DNA from: a phage
Reading direction: 5' to 3' (one strand)
Length of the DNA stretch: 24,537 nucleotides
Assembly: GCA_025881525.1 (NCBI GenBank)
Contig: GCA_025881525.1_4849.1
The notes beneath the pieces are model-generated. The model saw only the letters and a list, made by a program, of their open reading frames with translations, was not told where the DNA came from and did not search any database. Below are positions 2,970 to 18,138 of this stretch, piece by piece. A program made the position numbers and the translations under genes. How positions within the stretch are numbered: position 1 is the first letter of the stretch; each line of letters opens with the position of its first letter.

Positions 2970-3128
2970 ATGATGCTTAAGCTAGCCCTCTCAAATATGG
3001 CGCTCGCAATGTTGATGTTTATCGCTGGCGGGGCTTCAGGAGCCGCCGCTTTCGCGATATGGGGATGCATGTTCATGCTGACGGCAACAATAATTACTAT
3101 TGTTGGAACTTCGCGTTATGGCTCGTAA
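2970..3128 (+). CDS. hypothetical small membrane peptide (52 aa)
   Basis: Translation MMLKLALSNMALAMLMFIAGGASGAAAFAIWGCMFMLTATIITIVGTSRYGS; overlaps terminase start. Confidence 0.3.
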   Translation: MMLKLALSNMALAMLMFIAGGASGAAAFAIWGCMFMLTATIITIVGTSRYGS

Positions 3129-4542
3129 ACGCCTGTCCGCTCTGGCAATCGAAAAGCTGGAAGCGCAGATTGATGACGCGATGACAGATGTTGCAGAGTC
3201 AGCTATCTTTGGCATCTGCGATATGCAGAAGAACGTCATAAAGCGGTTAAGGATGACTGCCACTGGCGTTGATGACGTGACCAATGCAACAACTCATGCT
3301 GACCACCTTATTCCGGCAAAACTTGAGAGACTGCTTTACCCCAAACGATTCAAGTTTGTCTACGGTGGCCGTGGGTCAGGGAAAACGAGAACGATTATCA
3401 CCATCCTTACTGAGCGCGCAAGGTTTCGACCTGACCGCTTTGCATGCTTTCGTGAGATTCAGCAATCCATTGAGGATTCAAGCTATCAGGAGCTTGTTGA
3501 TGAGATAGCCCGCAAGGGTGAATCGGCAGAGTTCCGTGTTATCAACAACGAGATAACACACAAGAAGACCAAAGCTAAATTTCGCTTTAAGGGTCTGTAT
3601 CGCAACCAGACTACGGTTAAAGGTTTTGCTGGCATCACCGTAGGCTGGGTAGAGGAAGCTGAGAACGTCAGCCAGACAAGCTGGGATATTCTTGTGCCTA
3701 CCATCCGTGCCGCCAATTCCGAACTGTGGTGTTCATTCAACCCCAACAAGGAAACAGACCCAACATGGAAAAACTGGATTGCCCCCTATCACTCACAGAT
3801 GGTTGATGGCATATTCGAAAATGATGAAATTCTGATTATCGAATGTAACTATTCAGACAACCCGTGGTTCTGGGATACGCCTCTGCCATCCGCTATGGAG
3901 CAAATGAAGCGCGTCGATTTCGACCGCTACATGTGGATATGGGAAGGCAAATTTAATAAACGCAGCGACGAGCAGGTCTTCGGCGGCAAATGGCGCATTG
4001 ATAACTTTGAGGTTAAACCTGAATGGCATGGCCCATACTTCGGGATGGACTTCGGATTCTCCACGGATCCTACCGCGATGGTTGAGGTTTATATCGAAGA
4101 GTTACCGGGTGGGCGGCGCAACATTTATATTAATCGCGAGTACGGCAAAGTTGGTCTTGAGATTACCGATACACCAGCCGCGATGGAGCAATCATTTCCG
4201 ATGGCTAAGCGCGCACGATGGTATGCCGACTGTGCGCGCCCAGAAACCATCAGTCACATCAAGCGCTCTGGATTTGATATTCACCCGTGCACAAAATGGC
4301 CAGGGAGTGTTGAGGATGGCGTAACGTGGCTGCGTGGGTGCGACAGCATCATCATCCACAATCGATGCAAGGAAATGCAGAATGAAGCGACAATGTACAG
4401 CTACAAGGTTGATAAACTGACTGGGAACGTGCTGACTGATATTGTTGATGCATTTAACCACTTCTGGGATGCAGTTCGCTACGCACTTAATGACCATATC
4501 GTTCAGCGTGGCAGTGGAATGCTCATCCGGCGCAGGCGATAA
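3118..4542 (+). CDS. terminase large subunit
   Basis: Walker A motif FVYGGRGSGKT near N-terminus, C-terminal nuclease-like region, about 475 aa; ORF track starts at TTG 3100, ATG 3118 preferred. Confidence 0.9.
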   Translation: MARKRLSALAIEKLEAQIDDAMTDVAESAIFGICDMQKNVIKRLRMTATGVDDVTNATTHADHLIPAKLERLLYPKRFKFVYGGRGSGKTRTIITILTERARFRPDRFACFREIQQSIEDSSYQELVDEIARKGESAEFRVINNEITHKKTKAKFRFKGLYRNQTTVKGFAGITVGWVEEAENVSQTSWDILVPTIRAANSELWCSFNPNKETDPTWKNWIAPYHSQMVDGIFENDEILIIECNYSDNPWFWDTPLPSAMEQMKRVDFDRYMWIWEGKFNKRSDEQVFGGKWRIDNFEVKPEWHGPYFGMDFGFSTDPTAMVEVYIEELPGGRRNIYINREYGKVGLEITDTPAAMEQSFPMAKRARWYADCARPETISHIKRSGFDIHPCTKWPGSVEDGVTWLRGCDSIIIHNRCKEMQNEATMYSYKVDKLTGNVLTDIVDAFNHFWDAVRYALNDHIVQRGSGMLIRRRR

Positions 4543-4558
4543 ATCCGCATCGCCACAC

Positions 4559-4590
4559 TTGACCAATCTACACCGAGCGCATAGTATAAT
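4559..4590 (+). promoter_or_regulatory. promoter-like element TTGACC then TAGTAT (17 bp spacer) or TATAAT (20 bp spacer)
   Basis: Read directly; shares gcatagtat...tctacatca with the minus-strand reading of the 9781-9800 region. Confidence 0.3.
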
Positions 4591-4618
4591 CTACATCAGG
4601 CTTACCGGAGATATCACT

Positions 4619-15145: not shown

Positions 15146-15161
15146 CCGTGGAGAGTTAACC

Positions 15162-16598
15162 ATGATTGTCAAGATTGGCGATAAGTGGGTGGTCAAGTCG
15201 AAAGACGGCTCACAGCAATTTGGCGAATACGATACAGAAGAAGCAGCCAAAAAACGCCTCGCAGAAGTGGAAGCGTTTAAGCACATGAATAATAAATTGC
15301 AGGTTAACGTCCTGACGACCATCAATTCAGCCAGCAATATCAGTGAGCAAATTATTGATGGCGACCCTCACTACGTGATTAAAAACGTCGTGCCAGTGGT
15401 TGATGATGTCGTGATGAATAATGGCCTGTATCCGGGTGAGGAAATCCGCAAGAGCTATCACGGCCTTGATGGTAAGCCTGCACCATACAATCACCCGATG
15501 ATTGACGGCAAATACGTCTCCGCAAGCATGACGCGCGCTGCTAACCAGTTCAGCGTTGGTGCATGGATTGAAAACTCATCCCATGACGGCAGCAAAGCGC
15601 TTGTTGACCTGAAGGTAAACAAAGTTATCGCTGAACGTTCAGAAAAAGGACAGGAACTGCTCGGTCGCATTGAGTCGCTGATGAACTCCGCAGAAGGCGC
15701 TGAACCAATTCACGTATCCACTGGCTTATTGCTCAACCGCGAAGCTGCGGAAGGCACAAGCAAAGGCAAGAAATACACATGGATTGCGCGCAACATGGAA
15801 TGGGATCATCTCGCCATCCTGCCACCGGGAGTACCGGGAGCCGGAACGCCAGAAGATGGAGTTGGAATCTTTGCCACCAATGGCGAGCAAATCGAACGCA
15901 TTACTGTAAACCTTGAGGACTCAACCGTGCCTGACGAAAGCGCCAACAAGATTAATTATAAATCGTGGCTACACAAGGCTATCAACTACATCACCAATAA
16001 ATCCGACCTGTCATTTGACAACATCACCGAGCAGATTCGCTCTCGGTTAAAACAGGAAACCGGACCAGAAGTATGGCCTTATATCGTCGCCGTGTACGAT
16101 GACCGCGCCGGGTTTGAAATTGATGGTCAACTTTATCAGCAGTTCTACATCATTGAAGATGATGTGGTAAAATTGGTCGGTGAGCGGGTCAAGGCTGTTT
16201 ATAAGACTGAACTTGAGCCGGTAAAATCAACTGAAGGGGAAATCTCAATGACGAACGAGGAATTACAAGCGGCAGTAGCGGAAGCTACCAAGTTGGCCGT
16301 TAATGAAGCCCTCAAGCCGGTTCAGGAATCGTTGACAGCTGTCAACCAGAAGCTGACCGACATAGAAGCTGAAAACGTTAAGCTGAAAGAGCAATTGCAG
16401 GCGAATACCGAGCAGGAAGAAACCGCGATGCGTGCTGCTATCATCGCTGAACTGAAACTACCGGAATCCGCTGTGAATGCACTGAAAGGCGAAGCACTGC
16501 GTGAAACCTATGCGCTGACCAGTAAGCCTGCTGCGCTGAAAGGTGGCTTCCAGCCGAACCACGCTGATGACGATTTTGATATGGAGGCACCAGAATAA
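15162..16598 (+). CDS. putative prohead protease/scaffolding-like protein (478 aa)
   Basis: Large protein directly upstream of decoration-like and capsid-like genes; C-terminal coiled-coil and acidic tail [10 protein letters not shown] typical of scaffolds; ATG 15162 preferred over track start 15084. Confidence 0.5.
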
Positions 16599-17065
16599 TG
16601 GCTACTATCCGTTATGGCACCATCATTGGTGGCCCAGCTCGCAAGAACGACCCGCAGATTCGCGAAGGCATCATGAACGCCGCATTGAAACCGGGCGCGC
16701 TGGTAACTTTTAACGATGACGACAAAATTATCGCGCACGCTACCGCTGGCGGTCAGGGTTTCCCTTACGTGCTTCAGCATAACTACCTCGGTGGTGGCGA
16801 TGTGTCTGAATCGGTTCCGGCTAATGCTACTGGCATGGCTGTACAGTGCGAGTTTGGTGTGACCTATCACGCACTTGTCGCTGCATCTTCTGAGCTGAAG
16901 AAAGGCACCCCACTGGCAAGTAATGGTGCTGGTGCGCTGAAAGTTGCTGCAACTGGTGAGAACATCCTGTTCTATTCCAACGAAACTTATACCGTTGCCT
17001 CTGATGGCGCTGAGCTGGTTGCAGTTCGTCGTGCTGGCAATGCTTCCATGCCTGCTGGAGCTTAA
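16598..17065 (+). CDS. putative head decoration/accessory capsid protein (155 aa)
   Basis: Gly/Ala-rich small protein between scaffold-like and capsid-like genes; synteny only. Confidence 0.4.
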
Positions 17066-17067
17066 TA

Positions 17068-18138
17068 ATGGAAAAGATTATTTTTACCAAAGACCTGGTA
17101 GCCAACTCCGCAGTGGTGGCTGACCAGTGGAAACATCTCACCATCGACCGCAAGGTGTTCTGCAACGCAGAAGCTGAGCTGGCTAAAACCTATGGTGTTA
17201 ACGCCACTGCACTGGTAACGAAAGATTACTGGCGCGACGTGGACAACGTCACGACCCGTGTTTTCCGCAACGAGGCTGGTCAGGATATGATGGCTGACCT
17301 GATGGGTATCGCGGCAAACATCAATATCGGTAAGACTGTGGCAATCAGCCGTATCGCTTCCGATGCTGGCAAGGTCGTCCGCACCCTGTCTGGTCAGGAG
17401 CCGGAAGATTTGGATAAAACTCGCTACGATTACACTGGCGATGTGATTCCAATCTTCAAGACTGGCTACAGCCGCGAATGGCGCGAACTGCTGGGTATGC
17501 AGTCCGAAGGTTTTGACCCGCTGCTGGACGATCAGGCTAACGTCACCTTTAACCTGCGTTCAGATATGGCACAATACCTGCTGACTGGCGACCAGACTCT
17601 GAACGTGAATGGCGTTTACACTGGCTACGGTATCACCAACCACCCGAACACTGTTCAGGTTAACCTGAATGCTTCCGGCGGTCTGAATATCGACCTGCAA
17701 ACTGCAACGCCAGACGAAATCGTGACCTTCTTCAATCAGGATTTCCAGGCTATTCTGGATGCACAGAACGTATTTGAGCAGGTTACTCTGTGGGTTTCCC
17801 CGGCAGTACGTCGCAGCTTCATGCGTCCGTATTCTAACGCGGCAGGCTTCAAAGGTGGCACTGTTGAGCAGTACATCACGCAGTTCGGCAATGGTCGCAT
17901 CGGCAAGATTGGCACCAACTTCCTGCTGACTGGTAACCATTTCGTTGGCTATGTTCGCAACGACATGTACATCCGTCCGCGTGTTGCTCAGCCAGTTTCC
18001 ACCTATGCGGCAGCCCGTGACAATCCGCACGATAACTTTAACTTTATGGTGTGGTCTGCTTTTGGTCTGCAGATTCGCAAGGATGCCGCTGGAAAAAGCC
18101 GCGTCTTTAATGGCTATGGTAGCCAGGAAGCTAAATAA
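17068..18138 (+). CDS. major capsid protein (putative)
   Basis: 356 aa, position after scaffold/decoration genes, followed by strong terminator; synteny-based. Confidence 0.6.
   Translation: MEKIIFTKDLVANSAVVADQWKHLTIDRKVFCNAEAELAKTYGVNATALVTKDYWRDVDNVTTRVFRNEAGQDMMADLMGIAANINIGKTVAISRIASDAGKVVRTLSGQEPEDLDKTRYDYTGDVIPIFKTGYSREWRELLGMQSEGFDPLLDDQANVTFNLRSDMAQYLLTGDQTLNVNGVYTGYGITNHPNTVQVNLNASGGLNIDLQTATPDEIVTFFNQDFQAILDAQNVFEQVTLWVSPAVRRSFMRPYSNAAGFKGGTVEQYITQFGNGRIGKIGTNFLLTGNHFVGYVRNDMYIRPRVAQPVSTYAAARDNPHDNFNFMVWSAFGLQIRKDAAGKSRVFNGYGSQEAK

Follow-up and report, generated by a model that had tools for sequence, protein, structure and literature searches.

Head genes lie in two distant clusters in a Skatevirus-cluster siphophage and throughout its clade

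Swiduovirus, Cedarrivervirus and Skatevirus phages have been described as a single Skatevirus cluster of 46-48-kb siphoviruses (PMC11990801). The capsid of one relative, Shigella phage Sf11, has been solved by cryo-electron microscopy (PDB entry 9OCB; PMC12724387), and CRISPR-based reduction of the genome of the Skatevirus seszw showed that 53 of its 81 genes can be removed (PMC9825161). In KlebP_265, the genes for the prohead protease (gp58), the decoration protein (Dec; gp57) and the major capsid protein (MCP; gp56) lie about 20 open reading frames (ORFs) from those for the MuF-like protein and the portal; the same paper notes the gene synteny of each cluster and proposes the subfamilies Skatevirinae and Roufvirinae (PMC11769527). 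Here we analyse a 24,537-nucleotide stretch of phage DNA (GenBank assembly GCA_025881525.1, contig GCA_025881525.1_4849.1; hereafter the window) in which the head genes are likewise divided, so that it departs from the contiguous siphovirus head module, where terminase, portal, minor head/protease, scaffold and capsid genes are adjacent. The scattered layout is already shown or mentioned in published genome papers and is found in more than 200 deposited genomes. Three points of the present analysis were not found in those papers: an explicit comparison of the layout with the contiguous module of ES18 type, structural evidence for reading one gene as a protease-scaffold fusion, and a clade-specific 10-mer associated with promoters.

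A megablast search of the whole window against 50,697 phage records gave matches to 234 of them, chiefly Salmonella, Escherichia and Klebsiella phages. The best relative was E. coli phage swi2 (75% coverage, 90.9% identity, aligned in 19 pieces); other top relatives were phage C1, the BASEL isolates Bas77 and Bas80, Salmonella SeSz-2, and Shigella DS8 and Sf11. The nearest phages belong to the genera Swiduovirus, Cedarrivervirus and Skatevirus. Nucleotide identity and a common gene order (TerL / portal-MuF / lysis / protease-Dec-MCP / ParB block / head-tail genes) both place the window among the Skatevirus-cluster siphophages, and its source is a virulent siphophage of ~46 kb from the Skatevirus/Swiduovirus/Cedarrivervirus cluster. 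Phage 9NA, tried as a comparison, was set aside as belonging to a different genus.

A first-pass annotation, made from the sequence alone, had described head genes in two clusters about 7 kb apart, and every gene that it named is present at the same position or a few bases away. The two clusters and the blocks that separate them are as follows.

3118-4542, plus strand: large terminase subunit, TerL (Pfam Terminase_3, 5.2e-35, and Terminase_3C, 2.1e-10; several TerL PHROGs; stop codon TAA at 4540-4542)
5914-7329, plus strand: portal (PDB 9yin, 'Sf11 portal', E=3.2e-224; Pfam Phage_portal_3; phrog_146, 1e-108)
7304/7310-8260, plus strand: MuF-like minor head / head morphogenesis protein (Pfam Phage_Mu_F, 1.3e-10; phrog_758, 7e-119)
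8402-9774, minus strand: hypervariable accessory cassette of 181, 74, 104 and 56 amino acids (aa), with PHROGs of unknown function or no match
9862-11302, plus strand: lysis cassette with a 92-aa lysin fragment-like protein, a 154-aa endolysin, holin, and Rz with embedded Rz1 (phrog_10457, phrog_90, phrog_13249, phrog_312, phrog_11621)
11442-12492, minus strand: second accessory cassette (102, 65, 93 and 74 aa; PHROG matches including phrog_17775)
12597-15145, plus strand: small genes at the promoter-proximal end of the capsid operon, including the next two and small proteins at 14821-14967 and 15023-15145
13263-13514, plus strand: Lar-like protein (Pfam, 1e-11)
13504-13992, plus strand: MarR-like winged helix-turn-helix protein
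15162-16598, plus strand: prohead protease / scaffold-like fusion, predicted, 478 aa (start ATG at 15162, ribosome-binding site GGAGAG)
16598-17065, plus strand: decoration (cement) protein, 155 aa (PDB 9ocb_H, Sf11 gp40, E=1.5e-93; phrog_766)
17068-18138, plus strand: HK97-fold MCP, 356 aa (PDB 9ocb_A, Sf11 gp39, E=3.9e-229; 5wk1_A, 1e-25; Pfam DUF6260, 2.8e-112)

The MuF stop codon and the protease start codon are 6,901 bp apart. The interval holds the minus-strand block, lysis cassette, second minus-strand block and plus-strand block with Lar-like and DNA-binding proteins that had been described, and head-tail genes do resume at 22340, after an HNH-type gene and a minus-strand block at 20137-22240. 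The MuF-like gene has in-frame ATG codons at 7304 and 7310, both overlapping the 3' end of the portal gene; its Sf11 homologue has been detected in virions by mass spectrometry (PMC12724387).

A synteny comparison with related phages had been suggested as a check. We located TerL, portal, MuF, endolysin, Rz, protease, Dec, MCP and ParB by tblastn in the window and in 87 loci, 80 of which are IMG/VR loci encoding protease relatives. The split was conserved in all 30 informative clade loci (protease identity >=63%), with a MuF-to-protease gap of 4.5-7.9 kb, and a spanin and/or endolysin homologue was detected within the gap in 22 of the 30. Among scorable loci with protease identity <=43% (ES18/Oslo-like), by contrast, 47 of 49 have a gap of 6-1,002 bp, and in these TerL-portal-MuF-protease-Dec-MCP are contiguous or nearly so. 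The exceptions are a locus with a gap of 2.6 kb (L076) and Sinorhizobium phage phiLM21, in which MuF is displaced downstream of the capsid genes. The protease-Dec-MCP trio was never broken in the surveyed loci and relatives. The order of the blocks is the same in swi2, Sf11 and Klebsiella phage ZC2, the last having an MCP 79% identical to that of the window and DNA that cannot be aligned with it, and is fixed across the Skatevirus/Roufvirus-like clade, down to 63% protease and 71% capsid identity. Because the layout is common to every relative in the lineage, we regard it as an inherited feature of a well-sampled group, and not as an assembly error or a recent reshuffle. The split is very probably a derived, stable character of the Skatevirus and Roufvirus-like clade, that is, an inherited lineage architecture.

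The three groups compare with the window as follows. Skatevirus-cluster phages (swi2, Sf11, and Salmonella Skate, seszw and IME207; proposed 'Skatevirinae') share ~90% DNA identity over 65-75% of the window and have all blocks in identical order, and the portal, Dec and MCP are essentially the solved proteins of Sf11; their accessory cassettes differ in content from those of the window, and swi2 and Sf11 lack its two HNH genes. Roufvirus-like phages (ZC2, KlebP_265 and pIS4-A; Klebsiella/Aeromonas; proposed 'Roufvirinae') share the split, the block order and the sequence motif described below, with an MCP that is mostly 78-79% identical (96-97% in a few loci) and a protease that is about 77% identical; in ZC2, an HNH gene lies between portal and MuF. 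The ES18/Oslo-type module of temperate phages and prophages encodes homologous TerL, portal, MuF, protease/scaffold ('gp7'), Dec and MCP proteins (26-54% identity). In this module, however, the gap is 6 bp in Salmonella phage Oslo and 14-1,002 bp in 46 of 47 IMG/VR relatives, the lysis genes are elsewhere, and the protease is without the 44-residue N-terminal extension.

The second cluster depends on the identity of the genes at 15162-18138. The capsid and decoration assignments of the first-pass annotation were borne out by matches to the solved Sf11 chains, and the decoration protein also matches the TW1 capsid-stabilising protein (5wk1, 4.5e-4). By sequence match to these chains, the pair is of the Sf11/TW1 type, an HK97-fold MCP with a trimeric beta-tulip decoration protein. 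The gene that had been called scaffold-like requires a fuller description. We found nothing significant for its product in Pfam, NCBIfam, PDB sequence or profile searches, and literature searches on DUF2213 and on ES18 scaffold function yielded nothing usable. We list here what the predicted structure and the protein family indicate. An AlphaFold2 model based on diverse homologues from a search of representatives (a shallow 20-sequence alignment, with a mean predicted local distance difference test score (pLDDT) of 50, was discarded) has a predicted prohead-protease (assemblin) fold at residues ~45-230, an NTF2/cystatin-like middle domain, and a scaffold-like coiled coil at the C-terminus, where the helix at 365-431 has a pLDDT of roughly 75-97, mostly above 90. 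An exhaustive profile search found 5,757 cluster representatives of the protease family at E<=0.001, with a conserved domain at ~45-250, and residues Y90, H111, P112, S186, D215 and H216 are invariant in 133 diverse relatives. A scaffolding role is suggested by the modelled helical/coiled-coil C-terminus and by the position of the gene directly 5' of the capsid gene(s), which is conserved in all relatives. We conclude that, on the model, the product is best read as a fusion of a prohead protease with a scaffold-like coiled coil. Such a fusion fits the data from Sf11 virions, in which mass spectrometry covers only residues 40-356 of the capsid protein and residues 1-39 are missing (PMC12724387). 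The 478-aa protein would both scaffold the capsid protein and remove its N-terminal ~39 residues. The predicted protease has ~15% sequence identity to T4 gp21 and herpesvirus assemblin and, unlike them, would be joined to an NTF2-like middle domain and to a long coiled coil at the C-terminus.

Several further observations concern this protein. Residues 1-44 (15162-15293) form an extra N-terminal mini-domain of beta-hairpins and a helix in the model (pLDDT about 90), which is missing in the ES18-like, phiLM21 and Torfinnsbu homologues. Many database entries begin the protease 8 residues later, at 470 rather than 478 aa, and labels for this 470-478-aa gene 5' of Dec-MCP are inconsistent ('hypothetical', 'portal', 'coat'). 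A 52-kDa 'hypothetical gp64' has been detected in Sf11 virions (PMC12724387, Table 1); under RefSeq numbering, gp64 is the homologue of the 15162-16598 product and gp42 is the portal. That table mixes GenBank numbers (gp39, gp40, gp62) with RefSeq locus-tag numbers (gp42, gp52, gp64, gp68, gp77, gp78), so its gene numbers need to be re-mapped before use.

To see where sequence exchange occurs, we scored mosaicism per gene in 12 close relatives and per 100-bp bin in 10 close relatives. Portal and MuF belong to a conserved frame, together with the lysis cassette, the gene for the MarR-like protein, the interval 14.5-18.0 kb with protease-Dec-MCP in it, ParB and the head-tail genes. Sequence is hypervariable at 8.3-9.8 kb, at 12.0-12.3 kb, in several small plus-strand genes, at 19.3-20.0 kb and in parts of the last minus-strand block. 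At 8.3-9.8 kb, most bins are covered by 0-5.5 of the 10 relatives. The cassette at 8402-9774, with a GC content of 0.44 and negative GC skew, nevertheless contains one conserved bin (9.0 of 10 relatives) at 9500-9599, where no gene is called. The lysis cassette is covered by 9.3-10 of 10 relatives per bin, and the stretch at 12000-12300 by only 0-4. Within 12597-15145, the MarR-like gene and 14498-15145 are kept in all 10 relatives and the other genes are variable. Homology breakpoints fall at many gene boundaries. Exchange thus involves single genes and small cassettes inside blocks, mostly the minus-strand cassettes and HNH insertions, while the blocks stay put. Hence, of the earlier suggestion of extensive modular recombination, the mosaic nature of the intervening blocks stands; the layout itself is no evidence for it, since block order is fixed clade-wide.

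Gene removal in seszw concerns the same region. A viable 36,991-bp mutant lacks genes 69-72, 79-80, 1, 3-4, 7 and 9, all of which lie between MuF and protease, and keeps the split order with lysis in between; genes 69-72 have the same position as the cassette at 8402-9774, a correspondence that is positional only (PMC9825161).

Morons, or accessory islands, sit in the late operons of lambdoid and other tailed phages. The minus-strand cassettes of the window resemble them in being small, on the opposite strand (with reversed skew), variable in presence and lower in GC, with their own predicted promoter and terminator; equivalent positions are dispensable in seszw. Unlike morons in general, the insertions of this clade are found, along with an essential lysis cassette, at one constant place in the head module throughout the clade.

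A repeated sequence had also been noted at promoters. A 32-nt repeat has one copy 5' of the lysis cassette, at 9789-9820, and another 5' of the head-tail genes, at 22264-22295; the two have the exact 16-mer CAATCTACGTCAACAG in common. Allowing one mismatch, its core, ATCTACGTCA, has 8 matches in the window where 1.1 are expected, and all of these sites fall within predicted promoter regions, either where a plus-strand unit begins or where two units diverge. Placement is alike in ZC2 (12 matches, 2.0 expected) and Sf11 (11 matches, 1.1 expected). Exact copies of the 10-mer number 86 in the clade loci (580 kb) and 1 in the ES18-like loci (928 kb), an enrichment of about 140-fold. In most clade loci, motifs are offset from the protease gene by about -5.5, -2.5, +6.5 to +7.5 and +11 kb, and 25 of 31 IMG/VR clade loci have an exact copy at about -2.0 to -3.0 kb. 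The motif, promoter-like and terminator-like sites of the window are listed here.

136/153, 4589, 9779/9807, 12529 and 22251/22282: motif sites (spans 136-162, 4589-4598, 9779-9816, 12529-12538 and 22251-22291)
4559-4598, plus strand: promoter-like site TTGACC-17-TAGTAT followed by motif copy ATCTACATCA, by consensus match
9779-9860, both strands: predicted divergent promoter region with two motif copies; leftward TTGACG-17-CATAGT; rightward motif, ~9 nt, extended -10 TGATAGAAT, then the lysis genes
12518-12565, both strands: predicted overlapping divergent promoters with the motif in the common spacer, by consensus match
22251-22339, both strands: predicted divergent promoter region with two motif copies; leftward TTGACG-17-TATAGT; rightward motif, ~8 nt, extended -10 TGCTAAAAT, then the head-tail genes
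8246-8268: bidirectional terminator-like hairpin after MuF, 9-bp stem, T-runs on both strands
11292-11310: bidirectional terminator-like hairpin after Rz, with a near-duplicate at 20109-20131
18140-18166: bidirectional terminator-like hairpin after MCP, from the hairpin scan
20109-20131: terminator-like hairpin, the near-duplicate of 11292-11310

At 9.8 and 22.3 kb, the minus-strand reading of the motif supplies the -35 element TTGACG of the predicted leftward promoters, and a second copy lies just past their -10 element. Four of the five plus-strand units (those starting near 4.6, 9.8, 12.5 and 22.3 kb) open at a predicted promoter region that bears the motif. Transcription of the small genes, of HNH and of portal and MuF would be driven from the predicted promoter at 4559-4598; this element is also found ahead of Sf11 gp68 (GenBank numbering) at 5190-5230 of the Sf11 locus (L002). 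The region at 12518-12565 is likely to be the start of the operon that ends with the capsid genes, and our hairpin scan found no strong terminator between 12597 and 15162. All convergent junctions carry terminator-like hairpins, mostly with T-runs on both strands. The first-pass annotation had taken the motif to mark the boundaries of exchangeable units. The motif is real and marks predicted promoter regions at operon starts, but homology breakpoints also occur away from it. The hypervariable cassettes are indeed bordered by conserved regions with predicted promoters and terminators, which may thus act as recombination anchors.

We propose that an ancestral contiguous module, TerL-portal-MuF-protease/scaffold-Dec-MCP, would have been opened at the MuF|protease junction in Skatevirus and the sister Roufvirus-like lineages, giving a fixed order of leftward cassette, lysis cassette, second leftward cassette and small rightward genes that lead into protease/scaffold-Dec-MCP. 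The split would have arisen once, by insertion, when the common ancestor of this virulent clade gained lysis and accessory cassettes at the junction, and would have been kept since. The junction is insertion-tolerant, since the gap is 0.3-1 kb in most ES18-like relatives and up to 2.6 kb in one. The virion and lysis genes, all on one strand, would form separate transcription units closed by predicted bidirectional terminators, and their similar promoters would co-express the separated head genes, with a regulon in place of an operon. If the units are co-expressed, separation would cost nothing, because head assembly proteins would be diffusible and act in trans. It is conceivable, though on present evidence unlikely, that one phage DNA-binding protein (MarR-like or ParB/KorB-like) binds ATCTACGTCA and switches the divergent junctions from early leftward to late rightward transcription. 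Equally tentatively, ATCTACGTCA might occupy a putative activator position 5' of the extended -10 elements from which the lysis and head-tail operons would be read rightward. If true, such a regulon would explain how the head module could be broken without loss of coordination.

Other explanations for the two clusters were weighed against this single, inherited insertion. That they reflect an assembly artefact, a chimeric contig or a mis-join, as the first-pass annotation had allowed, found nothing in its favour and is effectively refuted by independent genomes: the same block order is found in the separately sequenced swi2, Sf11, ZC2 and seszw mutant and in 27 IMG/VR contigs, and 234 phage records match the window. 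We give this explanation practically no weight. Scarcely more than nil, too, is the probability that the genes at 15162-18138 are not capsid genes, such that there is no second head cluster. Pfam alone, it is true, gave DUF6260 for the capsid gene and nothing for 15162-16598; but MCP and Dec match solved Sf11 capsid chains (E=4e-229 and 1.5e-93), and the 15162-16598 protein has a predicted prohead-protease fold. A recent modular recombination in this phage, with the promoter motif as the boundary of movable modules, would account for the mosaic intervening region (19 aligned pieces and 75% coverage with the closest relative), for the motif-bearing promoter regions and terminators that flank the most variable cassette (8.3-9.8 kb), and for the two HNH genes, which are recent insertions. 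It does not account for a block order that is identical in relatives not alignable as DNA and in every informative clade locus, nor for breakpoints at many gene boundaries inside blocks, and no relative examined has a block in another position. We consider it very improbable.

A further alternative concerns why the split was kept. Separation itself may have been selected, if separate units allow different timing or dosage for the few initiator proteins and the hundreds of shell proteins, with the motif as the operator of a regulator. The predicted promoter-like and terminator-like sites that flank each unit are consistent with this, as are the overlap of the motif with the leftward -35 element and its position 5' of the rightward extended -10 at 9.8 and 22.3 kb, its clade-specific and positionally conserved occurrence, and the retention of candidate regulators (MarR-like and ParB/KorB-like) in nearly all close relatives. 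However, contiguous relatives reach the same stoichiometry from one operon, and the motif copies are direct, inverted and variably spaced, unlike a simple dimer operator. Selection for separation is thus possible but rather doubtful.

Some results weigh against the reading that we prefer, of one ancestral insertion into a conserved module followed by co-expression of its parts. The survey recovered no intermediate lineage (protease 45-60% identical), so that parsimony favours a single ancestral insertion without demonstrating it. The displaced MuF of phiLM21, and the inverted portal and MuF of Pseudomonas phage Torfinnsbu, make the head module less rigid than 'canonical' implies. The 15162-16598 protein scores 15.0 bits (E=0.025) against Pfam DUF2213, below the gathering threshold of 22 bits; 15 of 99 relatives of the protease reach this family at E<=0.001, and we therefore take the protease of the window to be a divergent relative and not a scored member. 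A generic sigma-70 promoter scan of the window was not enriched over shuffled sequence (33 found, 31 expected), so we base promoter calls on the motif-associated sites only, and the promoters, terminators and co-regulation are read from consensus matches only.

This architecture has practical consequences. Phages of this abundant group infect Salmonella, E. coli, Shigella and Klebsiella and are widely put forward for biocontrol, and in them synteny with terminase and portal does not reveal where the head genes lie. For engineering, the conserved late operons and the hypervariable, partly dispensable cassettes show sites for payload insertion or genome removal. In evolutionary terms, the split is a clean, lineage-wide break of an otherwise very stable head-module synteny, and the candidate shared promoter element makes the question of operon versus regulon testable.

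Within the lysis cassette, two adjacent 'lysin' ORFs overlap (9862-10140 and 10130-10594). The 92-aa product matches the Pfam Phage_lysozyme model only over positions 55-114, and the 154-aa product has endolysin PHROG matches but no Pfam family at E<=0.05. The swi2 paper terms the corresponding ORFs two lysins; they could be a split or duplicated lysozyme. In the second minus-strand cassette, ORFs 11750-11947 and 12002-12283 match residues 99-163 and 35-79 of phrog_17775, respectively, which is a single 163-aa gene in swi2; the gene at 11750-12283 may be disrupted or partly replaced. In Sf11, a DUF1353 gene directly follows Rz (L002 12307-12648) and its product has been detected in virions; the window has no DUF1353 gene. 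The 78-aa ORF that follows Rz in the window (11302-11538) was considered as a homologue, but BLASTP showed no similarity, and a third structural locus after the lysis cassette was dropped accordingly. This ORF is probably spurious, because a conserved minus-strand gene overlaps it.

Two sets of genes lie between TerL and portal.

4619-4825, 4830-5027, 5045-5215 and 5212-5400, plus strand: four small genes, function unknown (phrog_8758, phrog_13627, phrog_26739)
5397-5876, plus strand: free-standing HNH endonuclease with HNH_3 and AP2-like domains (Pfam HNH_3, 2.2e-21; local GC 0.41)

The four small genes are only partly common to relatives. The first has a ribosome-binding site and an ATG at 4619 and, with its clear predicted promoter, takes the place of minus-strand ORFs at 4663-4906, which have no PHROG match and were rejected. 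The TerL-portal interval of the window thus contains no minus-strand block, whereas swi2 and Sf11 have annotated minus-strand genes after TerL. Of 12 close relatives, 8 lack the HNH gene just 5' of portal and 4 have only part of it. HNH genes occupy other head-module junctions in relatives: between the TerS-like gene and TerL in Sf11, and between portal and MuF in ZC2. Upstream of TerL, a 148-aa protein (2393-2839; phrog_9747, function unknown) occupies the expected position of the small terminase gene, for which we obtained no family evidence of TerS; between it and TerL is a 52-aa ORF in the window and an HNH gene in Sf11.

Downstream of the capsid gene, the window contains the following.

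18152-18967, minus strand: HNH/endonuclease VII-like free-standing endonuclease (phrog_1035, 1.5e-17; CxxC zinc motifs, WHIDH; GC 0.41)
19046-19243 and 19284-20102, plus strand: a small gene and a 272-aa protein (phrog_5335)
20137-22240, minus strand: block with a clamp/RusA-like gene (20137-20676), two small genes, a ParB/KorB-HTH gene (21087-21899) and a 114-aa protein
22340-24325, plus strand: first genes of the head-tail joining and tail operon (phrog_797, weakly matching a head-tail connector)
23924-24325, plus strand: HK97 gp10/Neck1-like protein (phrog_5, 1.5e-13)

The endonuclease, probably a homing enzyme, carries an N-terminal CxxC zinc motif and a WHIDH motif, and its middle part is very rich in lysine. 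Its gene is a clean insertion of ~0.9 kb that separates the predicted MCP terminator from the following gene; swi2 and Sf11 lack it at this exact junction, and of 12 relatives only 1 has part of it. The unit at 19046-20102 has no motif and, in swi2 and Sf11, lies directly 3' of the capsid-gene terminator. The 272-aa protein is 80% identical to Sf11 RefSeq gp68 (30 kDa), which has been detected in virions (PMC12724387, Table 1). Its gene is replaced at the DNA level in 7 of 10 close relatives, and a viable seszw mutant lacks genes 16-17, at the equivalent position; the protein may be a dispensable or exchangeable virion component. In the minus-strand block, those close relatives in which the ParB/KorB-HTH protein was found have it at 98-99% identity, and its neighbours are about 80-90% identical or replaced, so that its conservation is unusually strong for a gene in an accessory-looking block. 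Sf11 homologues of the head-tail genes (RefSeq gp77 and gp78) have been found in virions (PMC12724387). The first gene of the head-tail operon (22340-22459) encodes a very basic, Ser/Thr/Gly-rich peptide of 39 aa (MGSTNSPSRSRATGNTKTGG...), and this ORF is kept at the DNA level in all close relatives that cover the position.

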